Below, one piece after another: positions 5,109 to 64,000 of a DNA stretch of 64,000 nt (its first letter is position 1; each line of letters starts with the position of its first letter). The stretch comes from Gammaproteobacteria bacterium (GTDB lineage Bacteria > Pseudomonadota > Gammaproteobacteria > Eutrophobiales > Eutrophobiaceae): assembly GCA_965222155.1 (NCBI GenBank), contig CBDCTH010000012.1, positions 3,296,001 through 3,360,000 on the forward strand, read 5' to 3'. Made by a program: the position numbers and the translations under genes. Under the pieces are notes generated by a model. It worked only from the letters and a program-made list of their open reading frames with translations, did no database searches and was not told the DNA's origin.

Positions 5109-8100
5109 TTAGGAATAGACCCACTCCCGCCAGCCGCGCAGCAGTGGGAAGTACAGACCCAGGCGGATAGGTCTGTCATCCAGTGCGGACATGATGTCGG
5201 CGTATTTCTCTAACTGTTCCCGGTAGCGGTCCTGCTGGAGGTCCAGGAACCGGTCAACGTCCCCGGACTCATGGCGTGAGGTCTTGTAGTCAATAATCCA
5301 GCGGACGCCTTCCTTGTCGACAAAGGTTCGGTCGATGATGATATTCACGACGTCCCCCCGGTGGATGCCGCTGAGGGCGTGTTCGCTGGCTTGTTCCCGG
5401 TGGTAGGCCAGCAACCACTGTCCGCGCGGGTCTGTCAGTAATGCCATCAACGCTTGTTCCACCAGGTCGCAGGCCGTATCCAGTTCCGCATCAGGCACAT
5501 CCAGAACACGCAGGGATTCCCGGTAGTATTGCCGCCAACCGGTGATTTTTCCGGCGTTCCACTGGTCGATTCCCGCCGTTGCCATCACCTGTATGCACCG
5601 GTGTACGACGCTACCCACGTGCATGATGGTGCGTCCGGCCCATTGGTATTCAATCCTGCCGTTTTCAGTTTCGATGTCTCGCCGCTCTGCGCCAGGATCA
5701 GTCGCTTTGATCCAGTGCGCCGCAGGTGGTGGTGCAGGCAACTGCCAATCCGCGCTCAGGCGTCGCAAGGGTGCGGCTTGAACCTCGGCAGGTGACGCCG
5801 TCTCTCCGTCCACCGGCGGCCGGTTTTCCAGGTGTGTCCGGAAACACTCCTCAACGACAGGCCATAACTGCGCCAGCAAGGTGTTGTCCGGGGGCTTTGT
5901 CAAGTCGCCGTCTTTGTTCTCCTCCGCGCTGCCGATCAGGTGCAGTTGTTTACGCGCCCGGGTGGCCGCCACGTACAATAAGCGTCCCTCCTCGTGGTGT
6001 TGCTTTTTCTTCTCCAGACTCCTGATGAAATCGTAGATAGGTGAAAAGTCCTCGTGGCTTGCCTTGACGGGCGCCAGCAACAGGTCGGAGTGATCCTGGT
6101 GTGGGCTTTCCGACCAGAGTAGCAACTGTGTATCGTCACTGCGACTACGCTTGGACAGGCCGGGCAGGATCACATGGTCGAATTCCAGCCCCTTGGCTTT
6201 ATGGATGGACATGACCTGAAGGGAATCATCGGCCCGGACATCGGCGCTTGCATACAGGGTATCCACTCGGTCGATGAACTCATCCCTGCTACCCAGGTCG
6301 CCGCCCACATCCAGTTCATCCAGCAGGTCAAAAAAAGTGTTGGCGTTGTGCAAATCGGTGGCTGAATCCAGGGTGGCCGGGCCACCCAGGTTAAGCCAGA
6401 CACCCTCGACCCAGCGTCGCAGCGGCATTCTGCCCTGCCGTGTGAACGCCTCTTCAAGAACAGGGCATAACCGGTCCAGTTGGCGCTGAGCGTCCGCGCT
6501 TGGTATTTCTCGCCTGCCTTTATCTTGCAGGCAATGCCAGATGGTTTCATCCTTCGCATCCGCCGTCAGGGCCAGGAGGTCCTCCAGGCGCAGCCCGCAC
6601 CAGGGCGCGCGCAGCAGGGCCAGCCAGGCGACCCGGTCGGCCGGGTGGTGCAGGGCGCGGGTCAACGCCATCAGGTCCTGGATGACGGGCCGAGTCGCCA
6701 GTCGCTCAATTTCGATGGCCCGAAAAGGCAGCCCGGACCTGGCCAGCATGGCTGTAATAGATTGCAGGTGGGGGCGGCTCCGTACCAGTATGGCAATGCT
6801 CTCCGGTTTCGGCGCGTTCAACCGGATTGTCTTGACCTGTTCCAGCACCAGCGCCGCTTCCAGCTCGTCATCCCGACCCAATATGGGGTGTATCTGTACC
6901 CTGTTTTCTGCTTTGTGCGGATGATGTGCGTCCGCCGCTGTGAAACTGACCGCGCCGCGGGCCGCGTCCGACTTGTCCGGCAGCGCCTCCCTGAATGCCC
7001 TGTTGACCCAATCCACAAGGTTCTTGTCGGAACGAAAGTTGACCTCGATATTCACCGGTTCAACCGGCACTTGTCCCAGTCGTTGTTGCTCCCAGGTAGC
7101 CAGGAATACGCCCACCTCGGCGTCCCGGAAGCGGTAGATGGACTGCATGGGGTCGCCCACCAGGAACAGGCTGTGACCATCTTCCGGAGCCCAGCCGGCG
7201 GTCAACTTCTCCAGCAATTTACCCTGGTTGATGGAAACGTCCTGGTACTCATCCACCAGGATATGACGGATCCGGTAATCCAGGTACAACGCAAGGTCGG
7301 TGGGGCTGTCCTCATTGCCCAATGCCCGGAGAGCCGCCAGGGAGATCCCGGTAAAATCCACCTGGTTGCGCTCGGCAAACAGCAGGTACAATTGCGCGTT
7401 GGCCAGCACCAGTAATTTGTATAAAGCCTCGAGCACCCGCCATTCCTCGTCGCTGTAGCCGGGCGGAGGCAGTCCGCGTATTTCCAGGAACAGTTCCTGT
7501 AATCGTTCATTATCCGCGCACCGGCTTAACAGGGATTGAAACCGGTGTTTCATGTCCTTGCCGGTATCACCCGGCGGGAATCCTTCGTTGACACTCAGCC
7601 GTTTACGCCAGTCACCTTTCCCGGTCAGACACAGGGAGATTATGAATTGCCAGCGCCGGAGATCAGTGGCGCCGGCGCCGGGTAATTCCTCGATAATGTA
7701 TGGCGACTCCGTAAGGTTCTGCGTGGCGAAACGAAGGCAGTCTGTAAATTCCGGCAAGAATTCCTGGGGCAAAGCCTCCAAAACATAATCCAGTGTTGTC
7801 TCTACAATATGTCTGAGGGCGCCCTCCAGGATCTTGCGGTCAGGACGTTGCCCCACCAGGTGACGGAGCCACTGGTCCCGTTTGCGCAGCATACCAGCCA
7901 GCATGTCCCTGGTCCGTGGCAGGTCGTTATCCAGGTGTTCCAGCAGCGCTTCAACAACATCGCTCCAACCCGCGTTGCTGCCCGGTTGCCCCCCATTCTC
8001 CGAAGCGCCGTCGTCCAGTTGCTTCAGAGTATTGGCCGCCGCCTCCCGATACAGGTCTTCGGCGTCCTCAATGACCTCCGGTTGCCCCCCCAGCTTCGAC

Positions 8101-8516
8101 AACAGGGGCATTTGCCGGGTCAACACGGCGCAGAAGGAATCGATGGTCTGAATCCTCATGCGGGCGGGATTACGCGTCAGTTGCCAACCTAGTTCCTTAT
8201 CTCTGTTCAGTACCAGGATGGCCAGTTGTCGACGGGCCTGTGCATTGGTGTCCTGATTATTGCTGTTACCGGCTTGCGTAGACTCCGCAGATTCCAGCGC
8301 CTCAATAATCCTGTTACGCATCTCGGCAGCCGCCTTGCGGGTGAAGGTGATGGCAACGATCTCTTCCGGCGAATCAACGACTGTAAGCAGGCGCAGGTAA
8401 CGCCGGACCAGCAATTCGGTCTTCCCGGAACCGGCCGGCGCCTGGACGATAAAGGACAGATCCGGGGCTAATACCCGTGTACGGATTTCCTGGTCGGCCG
8501 GCCTGATTTCAGTCAT
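5109..8516 (-). CDS. addA: AddA-like UvrD helicase / PD-(D/E)xK nuclease
   Basis: QAPAGSGKT, VDEYQD, VGDPMQSIYRFR, SIHKAKGLEFD, YVAATRA and C-terminal IDR...IIDYKT. Start placed at MTEIRP; the ORF-track extension is repeat DNA. Confidence 0.9.
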   Translation of the reverse strand: MTEIRPADQEIRTRVLAPDLSFIVQAPAGSGKTELLVRRYLRLLTVVDSPEEIVAITFTRKAAAEMRNRIIEALESAESTQAGNSNNQDTNAQARRQLAILVLNRDKELGWQLTRNPARMRIQTIDSFCAVLTRQMPLLSKLGGQPEVIEDAEDLYREAAANTLKQLDDGASENGGQPGSNAGWSDVVEALLEHLDNDLPRTRDMLAGMLRKRDQWLRHLVGQRPDRKILEGALRHIVETTLDYVLEALPQEFLPEFTDCLRFATQNLTESPYIIEELPGAGATDLRRWQFIISLCLTGKGDWRKRLSVNEGFPPGDTGKDMKHRFQSLLSRCADNERLQELFLEIRGLPPPGYSDEEWRVLEALYKLLVLANAQLYLLFAERNQVDFTGISLAALRALGNEDSPTDLALYLDYRIRHILVDEYQDVSINQGKLLEKLTAGWAPEDGHSLFLVGDPMQSIYRFRDAEVGVFLATWEQQRLGQVPVEPVNIEVNFRSDKNLVDWVNRAFREALPDKSDAARGAVSFTAADAHHPHKAENRVQIHPILGRDDELEAALVLEQVKTIRLNAPKPESIAILVRSRPHLQSITAMLARSGLPFRAIEIERLATRPVIQDLMALTRALHHPADRVAWLALLRAPWCGLRLEDLLALTADAKDETIWHCLQDKGRREIPSADAQRQLDRLCPVLEEAFTRQGRMPLRRWVEGVWLNLGGPATLDSATDLHNANTFFDLLDELDVGGDLGSRDEFIDRVDTLYASADVRADDSLQVMSIHKAKGLEFDHVILPGLSKRSRSDDTQLLLWSESPHQDHSDLLLAPVKASHEDFSPIYDFIRSLEKKKQHHEEGRLLYVAATRARKQLHLIGSAEENKDGDLTKPPDNTLLAQLWPVVEECFRTHLENRPPVDGETASPAEVQAAPLRRLSADWQLPAPPPAAHWIKATDPGAERRDIETENGRIEYQWAGRTIMHVGSVVHRCIQVMATAGIDQWNAGKITGWRQYYRESLRVLDVPDAELDTACDLVEQALMALLTDPRGQWLLAYHREQASEHALSGIHRGDVVNIIIDRTFVDKEGVRWIIDYKTSRHESGDVDRFLDLQQDRYREQLEKYADIMSALDDRPIRLGLYFPLLRGWREWVYS

Positions 8517-8550
8517 CCGGCAGCCTGTCAATATTGTTTTGATAATTACG

Positions 8551-8979
8551 TGACTCGGCACACTGACGAATACCAGCATCCATACGTGACCCATCATACC
8601 GACGAATACCTGCATCCATACGTGACCCGTCATACTGACGAATACCAGCATCCATACGTGACCCGTCATACCGACGAATACCAGCATCCATACGTGACTC
8701 GGCACACTGACGAATACCAGCATCCATACGTGACCCGTCATACCGACTTGCATCCATACGTGACCCGTCATACCGACTTGCATCCATACGTGACCCGTCA
8801 TACCGACTTGCATCCATACGTGACCCGTCATACCGACTTGCATCCATACGTGACCCGTCATACCGACTTGCATCCATACGTGACCCGTCATACCGACGAA
8901 TGCCTGCATCCAGTCGATTAAATGATTCCTTATAAGGAAGTGTTATTTGACTGGATTCTGGCATTCTCCAGAATGACGG
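8551..8979. repeat. Tandem array (5x36 bp + 5x30 bp + 1 unit) amplified from the left arm of a GTCAT..ATCCAG REP-like doublet
   Basis: Units tgacccgtcataccgac(gaatacca/tt)gcatccatacg at 8551-8912. The last unit (8885-8915) is an inverted repeat of 8949-8979 (25/31 match). Confidence 0.9.
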
Positions 8980-56760: not shown

Positions 56761-57225
56761 CCCTAATCCCGCATTAGAAAGTGCGGGAATCAAAAAAGCC
56801 TTGTCTGTATGAAGTTATGAGATTAACGACTATCAGCCGATGGGTGCACAGACAAGGCTTATGCAAATCATACCGTACAGAATCGCAACTACCAACGATT
56901 GATTGACCGGGCGCGGTGGCCTAGTGTGTGTTGTCGAATGACTGCGGCAGATAGGGTTTTCGGCCTGGGTGGAGGAGCACTTTCCTGTGCCCGGCAGCAA
57001 TCGGGGTTACCGGCCCTCGGACGTAGTGTCCTTATGGATGCTGATGTTGCACGACGGGGCGCGTTGTCTGGAGGACGTTCGGCCTATCCGGCAAGACAAG
57101 GCATTGAGGAAGTTGTCAGGGTTGCGGCGGCTACCGAGAGCGGACCTGTTGGGGGACTGGTTGCGGCGCCTGGGCAAGGGCGAGGTTGGTATCAAGGCGT
57201 TGGTGGCAATGAACCGGCGGGGGGC
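56761..57225 (+). mobile_element. Truncated, frameshifted IS1380-family element (left end + 5' of transposase)
   Basis: End-like CCCTAATCCCGCATT; MQIIPYRIATTND..., HFPVPGSNRGYRPS, LEDVR and LGDWLRRLG; broken frame and no DDE core. Confidence 0.75.
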
Positions 57226-57479
57226 GGGTCACCCATCCCTGTCTTATCGTCCTGACCACGTTAATCTGCCCGGTATGGTCCAAATCCAGCGTGAGCGCGC
57301 GATAACCTACCCTATACAAGGGTAAACCATGGCTCATTGCTATTGAGTAAGGCACTACAAATAGGCAGAATGCGCCTTGAATGACTGTTTCAAATCTCTA
57401 ACGCGGGATTTGGGATCCTGGATGTTTTTGATAAGTTAAGGATAAAATAACACTTGCCAAAGAAAGAGGAGTATCGTCG

Positions 57480-58703
57480 ATGAAAATCGATCTGGAAATC
57501 TTGAAGAACGCGGTAGCCGGAACTGCTGCTGCATTTCGTTGTGTTACTGACTATCAACCAGCGGGGGGCGCAGGTGATAAAATATTTCCGCCGACTTACG
57601 CAGGTGGGAAATACGCAACCGAAGAACGCATCGACACTGAAACTGGAGAAGTTCGTAAATGCGTTCTACTGGATTCAGTACAATCGCAAGCTAACCGTAT
57701 GGAGTTGGCCTTGCTGGACGCGCAGCGCGCCGGCAAGGTGGACCTGCCATTGCTGCTGACTCGTTTCGACCAACCAGAGTTACCCAGAAAATTTACAGTC
57801 ACCAGCCTTGAAGCGCCTCACCGCATAGCCGACGCGTTATTTCGCGACAGTCTGCTGAATGGCACAATTTTTCGCAAGTCGGACAAAGGCAGACTGCTCG
57901 ACTCAGCAGATATACGCAATGCCACCGGGTTGTTCGGACTTTGCCCTACTGCTCTGGCGTTCGGGTTGTGGGATTCGGTAGGACCTCGCGGGCAGCTTGG
58001 GTGTAAATTTCAAAGGGCAATTGTATCGGAAATTGTGGGGTATGACGCGATCCCCGGAAAAAAAACGTCCAGCCGCCTTGACCCGGCTCAAATAATGCTT
58101 GACGCAGGCCCGCTATATGCACGGGAAGCAGCTGGAGATGATGCGCCGGATTGGACTCTGGATGACGGGTCTGCTGTAACTGAAAAATCCAAGCCTAAAA
58201 AAGTGGGTAAAAAAGGCAAAGGCAACCCATCAGACGTGCTTCATGGAAACATAGCACCAAGTGTTTCAGATGGCGGCTTCACCATATCCAAAGCAAAACA
58301 AACGACAACTTTATCTTTAGCTGTCCTGCGCCGTCTACGCTTCCCGCTCAACGGCGGCACAGACTCGGATCATGATAATATAAATCTGGCGGCACGCACT
58401 ACTTTAGCGGCTTTAGGTTTAGCCGCCGGCAGCCTGGCACGGGTCGATACAGACCTTCGTTCCCGGTGCCAGTTGTTTGCGGAGCATGAGCCGGTCTGGG
58501 TGCTGCTCGACCGTCCTGGAGAAATTGCCCAGGAATACGAGCTAGCCCCTGGTGACGCTCTCAATCTGCTCCAAGCGACAATTGCCGAAGCCAAATCTGT
58601 CGGCCTCCCCTGGGAGGATGAAATCGAGTTGACCCCGTCTCCTGATCTTGTTGAGTTAGTACGGCGCAGCCAGGAACTGGCAATCGCCCAGAGAACTGAC
58701 TAA
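57480..58703 (+). CDS. cas7: Type I-G (I-U) CRISPR-associated Cas7/Csb1
   Basis: KIFPPTY, LLDSVQSQANRME, APHRIADA, PTALAFGLWDS and LRSRC; GAGGAG RBS. Confidence 0.93.
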   Translation: MKIDLEILKNAVAGTAAAFRCVTDYQPAGGAGDKIFPPTYAGGKYATEERIDTETGEVRKCVLLDSVQSQANRMELALLDAQRAGKVDLPLLLTRFDQPELPRKFTVTSLEAPHRIADALFRDSLLNGTIFRKSDKGRLLDSADIRNATGLFGLCPTALAFGLWDSVGPRGQLGCKFQRAIVSEIVGYDAIPGKKTSSRLDPAQIMLDAGPLYAREAAGDDAPDWTLDDGSAVTEKSKPKKVGKKGKGNPSDVLHGNIAPSVSDGGFTISKAKQTTTLSLAVLRRLRFPLNGGTDSDHDNINLAARTTLAALGLAAGSLARVDTDLRSRCQLFAEHEPVWVLLDRPGEIAQEYELAPGDALNLLQATIAEAKSVGLPWEDEIELTPSPDLVELVRRSQELAIAQRTD

Positions 58704-58708
58704 ATCCG

Positions 58709-61048
58709 ATGTTTGCCCTTGGCATCAACTACCTGAACGGGTGGTCGATGGCCGCTGCCGACGGCGCCGGAAAAGAACAGGCTGAATGGCCGCCCCATCC
58801 GGACCGGGTTTTCATGGCGTTGGCTGCTGCCTGGTTCGAAACGGACGAAGATCCTGTAGAAGCTGAAGCGTTACGCTGGCTTGAAACTCTACCTCCTCCC
58901 GCCATTGCCGCTTCAGGTGCGACCTACCGCAGCAGTTTTACCAGTTTTGTGCCGGTGAACGATGCCAGTCTCAGAAAGATACCCAATAGCAGAGAACTGA
59001 AAAAACTCAAGGCTGCCGGGCTCGCCCTGTTGCCAGAGTATCGCTCACGTCAGCCGCGCGGTTTCCCGGTTGCCATTCCCCATGACCCGACGGTGTACCT
59101 GATCTGGTCAGAAGCAGAATTGGGCATACATCGTCCGGCAATGAAAAAGCTGGCATTCAAGCTTACCCACATAGGACATTCTGCTTCTTTTGTGCAGGCT
59201 TGGTTAGAGGAAGATAGCAATGTTACCCAACACTGGGTACCTACAGATGGTATTGCCGACCACAGATTGCGAGTTCCTTCCACAGGCAGACTGAATCAAC
59301 TTGCCCAGGCTTGCAATCAAAACGAATGGTTCGCTTATCATGATCTGCGCAATGAAATAGAACGGGCAGAAGCAGACCACAAGGCCATGAAGCATCCACC
59401 TAGGGTACCTTGGGGAGATTTTCCGGACGCAGTATTATTGGTCGGCGAATCTGAGACCAAACAGCATACGGAATATCACAATGCCAAAACAGGCAATGCC
59501 GTTGCAGCCGGTAATCTTGTTAGCGATCTGGTTGACGATGGGGGAATTGCATCAGTCAAGACGCTGATTTCAGAATTCTGTGATAGCGGAAAGCTCACTC
59601 TGGTGAGCGCACACGCCCGGGAACGAGAAGGCATCAATGCAATTCCAATCGCTTTGGCAAGATTGCTCAGCGAGAGACTCGAAATAGAATATGAATCTAC
59701 CGTCGTACAGACAAATGTGGTATCTCACACAGGCGCAGATGGCTATGGACGTCTTGCCCGTCAGGCTCACTTTACTGGCAAACTCGATAGAGGAAACGAA
59801 TACATCATGGTAGATGACTTCATCGGTCAAGGCGGAACAGTGGCAAACCTGCGTGGCTGGATTGAGCAACAAGGCGGTAAGGTCATCGGCGCTGTAGCGC
59901 TGACCGGTAAGCCTTATTCTGCTAAACTAAGCCCCACACAGGAGCAATTAAATGAACTCAGACAACAACACGGCACGGATTTTGAAAAATGGTGGCGGGA
60001 ACACTTCGGCCACACCTTCTCTTGCCTTACTCAATCAGAGGCTCGGTACCTCACTCGCTCCCCGGACTTTGACACCATACGAAATCGACTTGCTGCAGCA
60101 AAGCAAAAAGGAGATAGCACAAGTGGTGTACGAAGTCCTCGCGAACAAGAAAAATACAAATCGGAACTGAAAACGCGTCTGCAAACCCGGTTCCCTGATG
60201 GGCAGCCTGTAACCCTGCGTCCGGGACCAGGTCGCTGGCAAGGGTACAGCAGACACCTGGAAGTTCCATTATCCACAGAAGCGCCCGGTTCGGTCTTTGA
60301 CCCCCGCTTTATCGTTCTCTGCATAAAAGGAAAACGCGTATCCTTGCCGACAACCCTTAAACTTACCGCGGCCCTGCGCGGTCTGCTGATGACCTGTTCT
60401 TCAAGCCAACCTCCACCGGAATGGTTTAGCGGCCACCGCTCGGATGGGACGCCGTCCACAGCGCCGCATATTGCATTGGTTCCTCTCCCTTTTGTTGGCG
60501 CCGAACATGCAGATGGGCGGATTATGGGTTTGGGTCTGATCCTGCCTGCAAAACTGGACCCGCATGATGCCAAAAACTGCCTTGAGACCTTCCTGCACGA
60601 TCCTGCTACGGGACTGCCGCATCAGCACACGCTCTTTGACGGTCAATGGTTCGAGAGCATATTGGAACTGGAAACGCGTGAACGTCCACCGAAAAATCTT
60701 ATCCCGCACACGTGGACCAAGCCGTCACGTGTCTGGGCCAGTGTAACACCGGTGGTTTTGAACAGGCATTTTAGCGGAGAGGACAAATTTCAAAGGGCCA
60801 CAGAAAGTGTAAAAGACGCTTGCGAACATATAGGATTGCCACAGCCTCGTGAAGTATTGCTGTCTCCCGTTTCTATGGTTGAAGGCGTCCCTCCTGCCCG
60901 GAACTATCCAAAGCTGATCCGTAAAAAAGATAACGGAAAACAAAGCCACAACCATGCAATCATCGTCTTTGACGAACCTGTGAACGGGCCGGTACTCATC
61001 GGCGCTGGCCGTTTCAGAGGATACGGACTGTGCCGTCCTCTGGATTAG
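58709..61048 (+). CDS. csb2: Type I-G Csb2 (Cas5/Cas6 fusion) with an internal PRTase domain
   Basis: N-terminal EWPPHPDRVFMAL, FVPVND and IGHSAS; C-terminal WASVTPVVL and GPVLIGAGRFRGYGLC; insert at ~59387-60115 containing VDDFIGQGGT. Confidence 0.92.
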   Translation: MFALGINYLNGWSMAAADGAGKEQAEWPPHPDRVFMALAAAWFETDEDPVEAEALRWLETLPPPAIAASGATYRSSFTSFVPVNDASLRKIPNSRELKKLKAAGLALLPEYRSRQPRGFPVAIPHDPTVYLIWSEAELGIHRPAMKKLAFKLTHIGHSASFVQAWLEEDSNVTQHWVPTDGIADHRLRVPSTGRLNQLAQACNQNEWFAYHDLRNEIERAEADHKAMKHPPRVPWGDFPDAVLLVGESETKQHTEYHNAKTGNAVAAGNLVSDLVDDGGIASVKTLISEFCDSGKLTLVSAHAREREGINAIPIALARLLSERLEIEYESTVVQTNVVSHTGADGYGRLARQAHFTGKLDRGNEYIMVDDFIGQGGTVANLRGWIEQQGGKVIGAVALTGKPYSAKLSPTQEQLNELRQQHGTDFEKWWREHFGHTFSCLTQSEARYLTRSPDFDTIRNRLAAAKQKGDSTSGVRSPREQEKYKSELKTRLQTRFPDGQPVTLRPGPGRWQGYSRHLEVPLSTEAPGSVFDPRFIVLCIKGKRVSLPTTLKLTAALRGLLMTCSSSQPPPEWFSGHRSDGTPSTAPHIALVPLPFVGAEHADGRIMGLGLILPAKLDPHDAKNCLETFLHDPATGLPHQHTLFDGQWFESILELETRERPPKNLIPHTWTKPSRVWASVTPVVLNRHFSGEDKFQRATESVKDACEHIGLPQPREVLLSPVSMVEGVPPARNYPKLIRKKDNGKQSHNHAIIVFDEPVNGPVLIGAGRFRGYGLCRPLD

Positions 61049-61065
61049 ACCGAAAAGAAAGCCTG

Positions 61066-64000
61066 ATGATGCCCCCGACAGAATTACAGCCGACGGATTT
61101 TCTCGACTTTTTTATAGCGCTCTGGGGAGAAGACAAACCGCCGTTCGCCTGGCAGCAACAACTGGCAAACAGGGTATTGGAAAATGCGCCGGAACTGAAT
61201 AGAGACAAGTCAACTTCCGAAACGTCTGACAAACAAACACCAAGGTCGCCCTGGCCCGGCGCCATCGCCCTGCCGACCGCATCCGGCAAGACAGCTTGTA
61301 TGGATATCGCGCTATTCGCTTTGGCAAGTCAGGCCTGTCGAATGGCTGACAAGCAAGCTATGACTGCCCCGCGTCGCATATTCTTCGTGGTGGACCGACG
61401 AATGATCGTGGATGAGGCCTATGAACGCGCCCGATACCTGAGCAATAAACTGAAGCAGGCTCAAGAGGGCATACTCAAGCGCGTTGCGGACAATCTGCGA
61501 GTTATTGCCCGCGGGGAAACCACTGATTCCGACCAGGAACGGCCGCTGGAGGCTTATCTCTTGCGCGGCGGGATGTACCGATCCGAAGCCTGGGCGCGCA
61601 ATCCCCTGCAACCGATAATAGTTGCATCGACTGTTGATCAAATCGGTTCCCGTCTGCTTTTTCGCGCCTATGGCCGAAGTTCAGGAATCTGGCCTATCTA
61701 TGCGGGACTTATCGCCAATGATAGTTTAATCCTGCTGGATGAGGCTCATTGCGCTCGGCCATTTCTGCAAACCTTAAAAGCAATACAACGCTATCAGACA
61801 TGGGCGCATGAATCCTTGGGCCGGCCATTCTACCCTGTCGTTATGTCTGCTACACCGCCCCCGAATATAAACGATGTATTCGAGGATTTGTCAGAGGAAA
61901 AGTACAATCCCGAGCACCCGTTGGGCCGTCGCTACAGGGCTTCCAAGCCCACGAAACTTAATGTGGTAGAAGATGCCAAGGGAACGCAGGCAACAACGAA
62001 GTTAGCTAAAGCCATGGCTGATGCTGCATCAGACCTGATCAATGAAGAACGCCGCGCTATCGTGATATTTGTAAACCGTGTGGCCACGGCGCGGGAGACT
62101 TCCCGGTTGCTAAGCGCAGACTATGGAGAACGAGCTATCTTGCTAACAGGCCGCATGCGCCCCGTTGATAGAGACGCCATCGTGCGGAAGCATTTGCATA
62201 TTCTGCGATCTGACCAGTCCGCTCAGCGGTCACTACCGGAACCTCATATCGTCGTAGCCACCCAAACACTGGAAGTCGGCGCTGATCTTGACTTTGATGG
62301 CCTTGTCAGCGAATGCGCCAGTCTTGATGCGCTACGCCAACGCTTTGGCCGCTTAAATCGCACCGGCAGACCGATTGAAGCAAGAGCGACAGTACTCATT
62401 CGCGCCGACCAAGCTGACAATATGAAAAACAATGACGACCCTGTCTATGGCATGGCCCTGACCAAAACCTGGGATTGGCTACAGAAAAACAAGGATGAAA
62501 ACAATGTGGTCGATTTCGGCATTGCTTATCTTAATGAGAAGTTGCCTGCAGGCGAATGCCCTCACTGAATTGAACTCTCCCTCAGTCGACGCACCCGTTA
62601 TGCTGCCCACCCATGTCGATTGCTGGGCGCAGACCTCGCCGGCGCCACAACCCTCTCCCGACGTTGCCCCGTTCCTGCATGGTCCCCGTGAAGGCGCAGC
62701 GGATGTGCAGGTATGCTGGCGCGCAGATATGGATTTAACAAATGACGCAAGTCAAAAAGAGGCTATCGAATCATTGTCTCTATGTCCACCGAGCAGCAGT
62801 GAGACATTGCCGGTACCGTTCAACGTTTTTAAACACTGGTTAGCTGGAAATGACAAGGAAGACAACAGCGCTGACCTGGAGGGCTCGCAAACGGAAGCTG
62901 ATATAGACAAAACAAGCCCAGCGGCTGCCGACGCCCATGTAATCCGATGGTTCGGCGCTGATACAAAACTGGAATACATCACAGCAGATCCCGCAGAGAT
63001 ACGCCCTGGTGATGGTATCGTTATCCCGGTTGACCATCCGTATCCCAGGCATCGACTTGGTGACCTGCCAGAAGACGCAGACCTGGACGTGGGAGATCGG
63101 GCCTATAGATTAAATCGGGCAAAATCCATTTTGCGTTTACACCCGCGTCTGGTGGATAGCTGGTCTGTCCCTGATGAGATCAAAGACAGCGCCCGCGTAT
63201 TGCTGAACGACCTGCAACGAAAACAAGATGAAGACCCGGATGAGATAATCAGGTCATTGCACAGTCTGCTATCTGAACTTGCCAGTGTACCCGAACCATC
63301 TTGGTTATCTGAAGTCGCTGACGAACTCATGAATGAGTTTCCAGAGCAAAAACTGGGGCAGGCTTACCACATTATCAACGATAATCACCTCATAATCCGT
63401 GGACGCCGCCTGATCCTCGAACTCACACCTGAAGCTGATAGCTTCAGTGATGAGGACGATGTCAGCGCATCCGGCATTTCACACCGTAATGGCCAACCCG
63501 TCCGGCTTAGCGCGCATCTCCCCGGTGTTGAGAACTTTGCCCGCCGTCATGGGGCAGCTTGTGGATTGCCGGACGAGTTGGTTGAAGCCATCGCTCGCGC
63601 CGGCCTGTTACATGATTTAGGCAAGGCCGACCCTCGATTTCAATCGTGGTTGCGTGGTGGCGTTCCCTGGTTGGGAGGCGATCCGTTTGCCAAGTCTGCC
63701 GGGATACCAAAGACCCGTGAGGCCCGGCGGCGTGCTTATAAGAACTCCGGGTATCCGCGTGGTGGCCGACATGAATTACTGTCTGTACGTATGACCGTAA
63801 ACACCCCAGCCCTACTGCCTGAAAATAATGATCTGTGCGATTTGGTCCTGCACTTAATCGCCAGCCATCATGGATACTGTCGCCCCTTCGCACCGGTTGT
63901 AATCGATAAACAGAACGTGCAAGTCAATTTTGAGTTAGGTGGTCATCATCTGCACTGGCGCGGACCCACCGGTCTTGAACGTCTGGATTCCGGCGTTGCC
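61066..64000 (+). pseudogene. cas3: Type I-G Cas3 (N-terminal SF2 helicase, C-terminal HD) split by a frameshift at ~62557; runs off the window
   Basis: LPTASGKT, LDEAH, MSATP and QRFGRLNR up to the stop at 62568. The +1 frame from 62558 is open to the window end, with PVMLPTHVDCWAQTSP, LSAHL, LHDLGK (63611), RHE and SHHG. Confidence 0.88.

Follow-up and report, generated by a model that had tools for sequence, protein, structure and literature searches.

Csb2 and phosphoribosyltransferases in described systems

Type I-G Csb2, known from Thioalkalivibrio sulfidiphilus and from Geobacter-type systems, is built of a Cas5-like N-terminal domain, a linker near R260 and a Cas6 C-terminal domain, and is invisible in cryo-EM maps (PMC9638904). 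We analyzed a 64,000-nucleotide stretch of DNA from a Gammaproteobacteria bacterium (assembly GCA_965222155.1, contig CBDCTH010000012.1, positions 3,296,001 to 3,360,000, forward strand), hereafter the window, in which the open reading frame (ORF) at 58709..61048 encodes a Csb2 protein carrying a predicted phosphoribosyltransferase (PRTase) module. The window's protein has the same Cas5-like part, linker and Cas6 part, and its gene the same neighbours, csb1, cas3g, cas4g/cas1g and a CRISPR array, as described for type I-G Csb2. It is ~250 residues longer, with the PRTase module lodged in the linker, and unlike canonical type I-G loci the window's locus carries a Cas3-extension gene (NF049934), apparently in place of Csx17 (Cas8g). 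We estimate a probability of about 90% that this is a genuine type I-G Csb2 with a complete ~253-residue mobile-element PRTase gene inserted in frame in the Cas5-Cas6 linker. On our tentative functional reading, the module would serve as a second, nucleotide-directed arm of interference.

The closest relatives of the module belong to a PRTase family that occurs in MuF fusions and in polyvalent proteins of phages and conjugative elements. Iyer, Burroughs and Aravind set this family apart as a distinct group with a DD motif and conserved features of its own, and call its role enigmatic (PMC5512222). Homology to this family (phrog_22413) extends over the full length, ~240 residues at 35-57% identity, with the same invariant residues including DD. 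The window's copy differs in that it resides in a host immune gene and not in a virion- or conjugation-delivered protein, and the I-G-linked copies group in a clade of their own. The main text of PMC5512222 on this family, its supplementary alignments aside, makes no mention of a Cas fusion.

PRTase-superfamily domains also occur within the anti-phage systems ShosTA (ShosT), retron type III-A, PsyrTA (PsyrT) and Ophion (OpnC). ShosT, a PRTase defence effector, reportedly disrupts purine metabolism (PMC11961720); further precedents are retron III, PsyrTA and Ophion (bioRxiv 10.1101/2025.09.30.679545). In contrast to these systems, the window's PRTase is covalently part of a crRNA-guided complex, and the conserved neighbours of its locus include no antitoxin, reverse transcriptase or radical SAM (rSAM) partner. 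Likewise, the conserved neighbours of the fusion loci described below include neither a ShosA/DprA-like partner nor a reverse transcriptase with a noncoding RNA. In the PADLOC scan, the retron PRTase_III-A models matched at E 0.0034-0.066 over the PRPP (phosphoribosyl pyrophosphate) loop only (~20-30 residues), and no ShosT model matched. Membership in the ShosT/retron group is ruled out by these weak retron matches and the lack of a ShosT hit, and the domain is only remotely related to the ShosTA and retron effectors that an earlier note on this DNA had named (PADLOC E 0.003-0.07, on that loop alone).

Among class 1 systems, enzymatic add-ons include type III Cas10 signalling with its ancillary effectors and the Cas7-11 complex with the Csx29 protease. 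These likewise join an RNA-guided complex to an enzyme acting beyond the target nucleic acid; the present case differs in its carrier, a subunit of a type I Cascade, in its predicted enzyme, a transferase of the PRPP type, and in the lack of an encoded signalling partner. A last parallel is ComFA-ComFC, in which a PRTase-fold protein is genetically coupled to a superfamily 2 (SF2) helicase, as the module is here to Cas3g. The similarity to solved ComF is marginal (E 0.51), and the setting is interference and not DNA uptake. ComFC has a conserved arginine in common with the MuF/polyvalent PRTase family (PMC5512222).

A Csb2 reading frame with a PRTase module in its middle

The gene and its parts are as follows.

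58709..61048, + strand: csb2 with PRTase insert, whole ORF, ATG start, 779 amino acids (aa)
58709..59383, + strand: Cas5-like N-terminal part of Csb2, aa 1-225, with the first charged segment YHDLRNEIERAEADHKA at its end
59384..60142, + strand: inserted PRTase module (predicted), aa 226-478, with an AMK...PPR motif at its start
59801..59839, + strand: PRPP-binding loop YIMVDDFIGQGGT, Y365-T377, with D369, D370, G375 and T377
60143..61045, + strand: return segment (REQEKYKSELKTRLQTRF...) and Cas6-like C-terminal part of Csb2, aa 479-779

All of the motifs by which the earlier note had recognized a Csb2 protein are present in the translation (EWPPHPDR, FVPVND, IGHSAS, WASVTP and GAGRFRGYG), as are YHDLRNEIERAEADHKA, MKHPPRVPWGDFPD (M227 = nucleotide 59387), the loop at Y365-T377 (nucleotides 59801-59839) and EQEKYKSELKTRLQTRF. 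The NCBIfam model TIGR02165 matches the ORF in two stretches with E 1.3e-87 and 295 bits (cut-off 45), the first of which pairs residues 1-244 with model positions 1-240. PADLOC Cas56g (PDLC01777, 8.6e-120) is likewise interrupted and picks up again at residue 489, with residues 489-779 covering model positions 167-428 of 431. In PF09609, residues 1-225 correspond to model positions 28-222 of 552 (E 1.1e-14) and the last 305 residues to positions 328-552 (E 4.5e-11). By these profile matches, the Csb2 identity of the ORF is far beyond chance, and because the Csb2 models match only in split N- and C-terminal stretches, the middle of the 779-residue protein is extra. Public annotation of the fusion proteins reads 'type I-U CRISPR-associated protein Csb2', and a sequence search with the whole protein gave no match among solved structures. 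H576 and H587 are invariant in an alignment of 29 sequences, hand-picked across the 120 listed insert-bearing proteins (alignment A1). In the T. sulfidiphilus protein, the Cas6 catalytic histidine for pre-crRNA cleavage is H503.

Alignment with 18 insert-less orthologues places the insertion between ~K229 and ~Y482. (The 73-row Csb2 alignment omits L003, which has the L002 sequence, L053, which runs off its contig, L056, and the ORFs shorter than 500 aa in L009, L054, L059, L071 and L074.) In the insert-less proteins, a charged segment of the form '...DL......KGK.K' is followed straight by 'K.L...L..RF....P.SLRP'; in the fusions, ~253 residues separate these two segments, so that the insert occupies residues ~226-478 between the Cas5-like and Cas6 halves. 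The same borders are drawn by a standalone 257-aa ORF at locus L164, whose residues 3-255 align without gaps to residues 225-477 of the window's protein at 65% identity. This match bears out the proposal that a complete standalone gene was captured. The extent first given, ~59387-60115, was slightly too narrow: the block spans ~K229 to ~Y482 by the orthologues and 225-477 by the standalone homologue. Given the published two-domain picture of Csb2 (PMC9638904), the insert therefore sits in the inter-domain linker. An intein or other self-splicing element was considered and set aside, as homology to the PRTase family accounts for the whole insert.

Assignment of the insert to a mobile-element PRTase family

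The profile phrog_22413, a phage family annotated as of unknown function, matches the insert at E 3.1e-62 over model positions 13-238 of 242. This match, with the split PF09609 and TIGR02165 matches, upholds the in-frame PRTase-family module in mid-Csb2 that had been predicted for this gene. An exhaustive search of 1.84 billion cluster representatives returned 2090 relatives at E<=1e-3, 1457 at E<=1e-10 and 350 at E<=1e-30. These relatives are of three kinds: standalone proteins of ~240-250 aa, fusions to phage MuF, and domains in proteins of 2000-4600 aa that contain the 'large polyvalent protein' domains LPD37, LPD39 and LPD22. By sequence, then, the insert is a member of the PRTase family of PMC5512222 and phrog_22413.

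The wider assignment to the PRTase fold is a prediction drawn from profile comparisons. PF00156 scores the window's insert at 16.7 bits (E 0.0045), below its gathering threshold of 26.3, and only one of eight family members scanned passes it (P0121, 29.8 bits). A profile of the family searched against the PDB returned PRTase-fold proteins in 36 of 38 matches, the best an adenine phosphoribosyltransferase (APRT)-type enzyme at E 6.1e-7. Alignment with hhalign to three APRTs reached 92% probability over 44 columns only (PRPP loop, helix and strand), and phmmer aligned APRT 4mb6 to insert residues 55-177 at E ~0.006. The loop YIMVDDFIGQGGT has the expected composition, a hydrophobic strand followed by two acidic residues and ..GGT, and aligns with the PRPP loop of APRT; the window's insert matches alignment A2 at each of its 12 invariant columns. 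The window's copy, the only one of the family in its genome, lies inside csb2 in a chromosomal cas operon, and it is a homologue by descent of the mobile-element family in a different setting.

Two alternative roles arise from these comparisons. The PDB profile search also returned PurR repressors, which contain a PRT domain (1p4a and 1o57, E ~0.005), and the module could, like the PRT domains of the PurR type, bind PRPP, (p)ppGpp or another nucleotide without turnover and tune crRNA processing or interference to the metabolic or infection state. Such a ligand sensor would require no partner gene, and a position in the flexible Cas5-Cas6 linker could transmit a conformational change (PMC9638904). 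The catalytic-looking signature is equally conserved in phage-borne members, which have no Cascade to regulate, and we regard a sensor as distinctly unlikely.

The second role starts from the viral relatives. In IMG/VR, 136 viral contigs encode relatives, up to 57% identical. At the 15 top loci inspected, the relatives are mostly parts of long ORFs (1618-3878 aa), and some belong to fusions of 556-658 aa. Five of these ORFs were scanned; one contains MuF and another LPD22, GNAT and PF00156. The I-G-linked clade (60-77% identity) was not seen among the viral contigs listed. If phages inject a PRTase of this family to help early in infection or to counter defence, the copy on Cascade might compete with, reverse or pre-empt that reaction, or act as a decoy for a phage factor. 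Outside the I-G clade, the closest relatives are found as standalone proteins, fused to MuF or within polyvalent proteins, which suits this proposal, as do the number of viral relatives and the separation of the I-G-linked clade from them. Its basis is purely circumstantial, and the single family copy in the window's genome leaves no resident prophage copy to compare; we consider it very unlikely and prefer to read the module as an enzyme acting for the host's interference complex.

Spread, junctions and selection

The fusion is widespread. A search with the insert region found 359 protein clusters that carry it, in proteins of 428-1364 aa. Over the insert, identity is 65-78% for the 120 listed, 118 of which also match PF09609. 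We fetched 80 related genome loci and sorted their csb2 ORFs into four groups: 54 full fusions (763-803 aa), 18 insert-less forms (469-569 aa), 2 with a partial insert (L058 and L062), and 6 that are cut short or run off a contig end. Two of the 54 fusions, L002 and L003, have the same sequence and are two contigs of one metagenome-assembled genome. The full fusions fall into seven phyla: Pseudomonadota (29), Acidobacteriota (9), Binatota (7), Latescibacterota (5), Nitrospirota (2), Gemmatimonadota (1) and Myxococcota (1). These 359 clusters and 54 loci rule out a singleton and answer the call of the earlier note for other Csb2-PRTase fusions.

The junctions are the same in 53 other full fusion loci, and both are bridged by contigs from studies P1 and P2. 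Record 9 of run X2 covers 58709-60687 and record 1 of run X1 covers 58709-60019; both runs could stem from the window's own source sample. In run X3, from a different study, records 17 and 18 bridge the 5' and 3' junctions. A chimeric assembly is ruled out by the bridging contigs from two studies together with the identical junctions elsewhere.

Selection acts on the insert much as on the rest of the protein. By the Nei-Gojobori method on 23 non-overlapping pairs, dN/dS is 0.14-0.49 for the insert, 0.07-0.32 for the N-terminal part and 0.115-0.405 for the C-terminal part, and mean pairwise identity is 0.642, 0.635 and 0.652, respectively. The insert evolves under purifying selection comparable to that of its flanks. 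Eleven signature residues (K260, E305, N310, Q334, R348, F355, D369, D370, G375, T377 and E444) are each present in 54 of 54 inserts (53 loci and the window) and nearly universal in 116 other family domains. The two aspartates and the threonine of the PRPP loop are found in all 116 of these; R348 is found in 115 of them, and R232 is nearly invariant. The loop, with D369, D370, G375 and T377 kept in every one of the 54 inserts, is thus as intact as had been claimed from the window alone. In alignment A1, the first aspartate of the loop is replaced in 2 of 29 sequences, by G in P0068 and by N in P0097.

These results bear directly on whether the insert is a functionless passenger, a neutral selfish insertion tolerated in a flexible linker, or a product of faulty assembly. 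The insert can be deleted without breaking the ORF (L058, L061, L062 and L065), and at least one likely single-base assembly error lies nearby, in cas3g. Against this stand the recurrent and doubly bridged junctions, the dN/dS of the insert, the signature residues kept in every copy, and the deep branching common to the insert and the host gene; we give a passenger or an artefact hardly any credence. The module is better read as a selected part of its protein.

The fusion-bearing systems are live, as judged from their large arrays and long cas3g ORFs: arrays of 89, 57, 51, 50, 47 and 40 repeats lie beside the fusions of L035, L048, L021, L036, L047 and L005, and a cas3g ORF of at least 950 aa is found within the fetched flanks of 41 of the 54 full fusion loci.

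As a separate observation, a protein of ~520 aa with AAA-ATPase_like (PF09820) and PDDEXK_9 domains (L004:5823-7367) is encoded near 9 of 55 fusion loci (the 54 fetched and the window) and near none of the 18 insert-less loci.

Capture, loss and exchange of the module

On a tree with 116 other family domains, built from the 119 of 160 domain hits that aligned over at least 200 aa, all Csb2 inserts form one clade with a support of 0.977, which points to a single capture of the PRTase module into Csb2. Nearest to this clade, but outside it, lie a polyvalent protein of 2313 aa and two short standalone proteins. In its deep branching the insert tree follows the Csb2 core tree, on which insert-less lineages are nevertheless interleaved. 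Monophyly of the insert-bearing Csb2 proteins on the core tree was rejected (approximately unbiased (AU) test, p 0.004), and at least four changes are required. Because the tested group was named after viewing the FastTree tree and the model was a quick LG+G4, repeated loss is indistinguishable from recombination in this test.

Four secondary deletions that kept the ORF open are visible directly (L058, L061, L062 and L065). Two of these, L061 and L065, retain fusion-type flanks and look like clean secondary deletions. The remaining interleaving reflects either further loss or recombination. The insert is an accessory module, dispensable for an open reading frame and an otherwise intact locus.

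In two close pairs of loci, L068-L016 and L004-L017, the dS of the insert is 0.73-0.82 and that of the flanks 0.23-0.32, a two- to three-fold difference that suggests exchange of the module by recombination between loci.

The locus itself arrived by lateral transfer, since Csb2 occurs in only 2 of 60 other genomes of the window's family, both copies being insert-less and 33-49% identical. The capture is not confined to this genome; the copies form an old, laterally spread clade whose members are also found as separate genes.

Standalone relatives and the link to cas3g

A search at insert length found 761 proteins at E<=1e-10, of which the best 120 are mostly 239-272 aa long and 57-78% identical; two of these 120 bear the NCBI name 'phosphoribosyltransferase'. 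The insert alone is covered by 102 of the 120, with alignments that start at 225-229 and end at 470-474, whereas the other 18 have Csb2 flanks and are fragments of fusions. In a tree of 108 of 118 short proteins (225-300 aa) together with the L164 ORF, 102 of the 109 standalone sequences share a clade with the Csb2 inserts (support 0.81) and are intermixed with them there. The I-G-linked copies are one clade, found as an insertion or as a separate gene of ~250 aa, in one clear case directly upstream of cas3g. This last arrangement is seen in L164/L165, where the 257-aa PRTase ORF ends 15 nucleotides upstream of a full-length cas3g (TIGR02621) and the gene order is PRTase, cas3g, cas8g2 (TIGR04106), csb1 and a 721-aa csb2. 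The same enzyme in two I-G architectures argues for a functional tie of the PRTase to the I-G effector.

In the 721-aa Csb2 of this locus (L164:13560-15722), the Csb2 models stop at residue 490 and are followed by a ~230-residue C-terminal extension with no Pfam or NCBIfam match.

The standalone copy beside cas3g is the first point in favour of a different role, in which the PRTase-fold module binds single-stranded DNA or a nucleotide cofactor and helps to load the displaced strand onto Cas3g or pass it on, with no synthesis or depletion of nucleotides. ComFC and the ComFA helicase in DNA uptake, and DprA-linked PRTase-helicase fusions, would be its parallels. The order csb1-csb2-cas3g, with csb2 immediately before cas3g, is consistent with such a helper, as is R348, present in all 54 inserts and in 115 of the 116 other members of the family; Cas3g, moreover, is a stable part of the I-G effector (PMC9638904). 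The family is nearer to APRT-type enzymes (E 6.1e-7) than to solved ComF (7p0h, E 0.51), the acidic residues and the threonine of the PRPP loop are all kept and would be superfluous for a pure DNA binder, and insert-less orthologues pair with the same Cas3g and Cas3-extension genes. ComFC likewise retains the PRPP-loop motif. We judge a ComFC-like helper unlikely, and an enzyme acting on nucleotides is the reading we carry forward.

Other arrangements were sought. A regular split into three genes (Cas5-like, PRTase and Cas6) was rejected, because the short proteins with the N-terminal part only (193 at E<=1e-20) look like fragments: their lengths are scattered over 131-394 aa and most have one member each. 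No further standalone context was found in 400 other genomes of the window's class (three weak matches), in 400 of the phylum of G421 (two matches, one a frame of fusion length, 817 aa, the other of 420 aa and interrupted by a TGA) or in 400 of the phylum of G881 (one more fusion). Among 10 genomes with fetched loci, nine have the fusion copy alone and G884 has none.

In a set of shorter ORFs of 111-163 aa, the match to the PRTase sets in at the PRPP loop and is confined to the C-terminal half, at 49-66% identity:

L220:1655-2146: C-terminal-half PRTase ORF
L230:1474-1941: C-terminal-half PRTase ORF
L231:2004-2471: C-terminal-half PRTase ORF
L232:5179-5514: C-terminal-half PRTase ORF
L236:7968-8363: C-terminal-half PRTase ORF

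The ORF of L220 adjoins genes for a MADS3-like AAA ATPase and a Snf2-family helicase, in what looks like a defence island. Neighbours of partial PRTase genes on other metagenome contigs include a Fic protein (L242) and an IS481 transposase (L230). In L210, the 110-aa ORF that follows the PRTase is cas4-like by a local hidden Markov model only (3e-9), with no NCBIfam hit.

The surrounding cas locus

The genes around csb2 are listed below; coordinates above 64000 are window-equivalent positions taken from the genome contig.

56969-57325: IS1380 transposase fragment (E 4.4e-10), upstream of csb1 at the edge of the cas locus
57480..58703, + strand: csb1 / cas7g, 407 aa, type I-G effector backbone, directly upstream of csb2
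61030-62568 and 62495-64126, + strand: cas3g in two frames, the second running past the window end
64053-65063 (L001:1053-2063): 'Cas3-extension family' gene, NF049934, E 2.8e-58
65655-67391: cas4g/cas1g, NF049935, E 1.6e-252
67397-67687: 96-aa ORF, putative cas2 by its position
67889-68070 (L001:4889-5070): CRISPR array of three repeats (two spacers), Rfam CRISPR-DR16

csb1 matches PF09617 (E 2.8e-51) and TIGR02570 (E 1.1e-21) and adjoins csb2 in 78 of 81 loci (the 80 fetched and the window). The TIGR02621 model covers positions 29-420 in the first cas3g ORF and 423-797 in the second; the two frames meet near 62552-62557 and are split by one extra base. Because the orthologue in L002 is a single 1041-codon frame and the contigs of runs X1 and X2 have one letter fewer at 62557, the break probably reflects faulty assembly or strain variation and not a dead gene. 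The Cas3-extension gene (~330 aa, no Pfam match) is present in 64 of the 81 loci, including 43 of 55 with the fusion and 17 of 18 without an insert, and may replace a large or small subunit. Csx17 (Cas8g, TIGR04113) gave no match in the window's genome, in a weak search whose controls gave no signal either and which did not include TIGR04106 (Cas8g2). The array repeats score 38.6-39.4 bits against CRISPR-DR16 (gathering score 35).

With csb1/cas7g, cas3g, cas4g/cas1g and a CRISPR array, the operon has the genes expected around a type I-G csb2. Apart from the insert, the locus is a normal member of a Csx17-less I-G variant, whose gene set (csb1, csb2, cas3g, the Cas3-extension gene, cas4g/cas1g, a putative cas2 and a CRISPR array) is unchanged between loci with and without the insert.

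Two observations lie apart from this operon. Elsewhere in the same genome and outside the window, G000:C12:2241053-2241214 encodes 54 residues that are 87% identical to Csb2 residues 649-702; they lie inside a 71-codon open frame, a remnant of a second csb2 copy. Within the window, 8547-8912 forms a tandem array of ~11 copies of a 36-nucleotide unit, scored also at periods of 30 and 90, which falls in the 1266-aa ORF at 5109-8909 (- strand) and is probably a repetitive protein segment.

A possible nucleotide-directed arm of interference

Because the family-invariant residues, including the DD..GGT of the PRPP loop, are kept and the constraint on the insert equals that on the Cas5 and Cas6 parts, the insert is most likely an active PRPP-using enzyme, which Cascade would carry as an accessory that it can do without. 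From this position on the crRNA-guided complex, beside the stably bound Cas3g, the PRTase would, when the complex engages, consume PRPP or convert a base or nucleotide, and the invader's nucleotide supply would be starved or poisoned, by a logic like that shown for ShosT, an unrelated PRTase toxin. Neither crRNA processing nor DNA cleavage would depend on the module. We infer catalysis, substrate, coupling to target binding and effect on invaders, and regard this accessory effector mechanism as a tentative reading, somewhat short of an even chance. A more specific form, in which target binding switches on the built-in PRTase to drain PRPP or nucleotides or to synthesize an unusual nucleotide, is doubtful. 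If true, such a target-gated PRTase would amount to an abortive-infection or type III-like second arm taken from the phages' arsenal, and the separate PRTase gene beside cas3g would act in trans.

Several observations weigh against these interpretations. First, the window's insert stays under the Pfam gathering score, and similarity to classical PRTases is limited to ~40-120 residues. Second, the neighbours of fusion loci include no conserved partner gene, whether sensor, antitoxin or second effector, and the AAA-ATPase_like and PDDEXK_9 gene, their sole enriched neighbour, accompanies just 9 of 55. Third, the insert has been lost repeatedly and is therefore not essential. Fourth, the biochemical role of the family is itself called enigmatic by those who described it (PMC5512222), and since phages deliver these proteins with their DNA, a helper or anti-defence role fits better than a toxin. 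Fifth, a few partial standalone relatives sit in non-CRISPR contexts, and most standalone relatives are without a placed context. Sixth, the system in this genome may be weak, with a three-repeat array, an IS1380 fragment upstream and a cas3g that is frameshifted in the assembly. We place the effector arm first, the ComFC-like helper of Cas3g second, the ligand sensor next, and the counter to phage homologues last of these.

A type I-G variant with an integrated phage-family PRTase module

No description of a Cas-PRTase fusion was found in the full-text literature, with most subscription journals and supplements outside its coverage, in agreement with the earlier note, which knew of no Csb2-PRTase fusion. 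The type I-G variant with an integrated phage-family PRTase is real, conserved and apparently undescribed.

Type I CRISPR-Cas is not known to act other than via guided DNA binding and degradation by Cas3, and side-arms of an enzymatic kind are characteristic of type III systems. In the variant described here, a domain of metabolic-enzyme type belongs to a Cascade subunit, in which it is conserved, under selection and laterally spread. Insert-loss orthologues and separate-gene forms provide natural controls, so that the question of its role is directly testable, and a PRTase family of phages and plasmids without a known function gains a tractable assay system and a functional handle. The finding suggests that hosts recruit mobile-element weapons into adaptive immunity.

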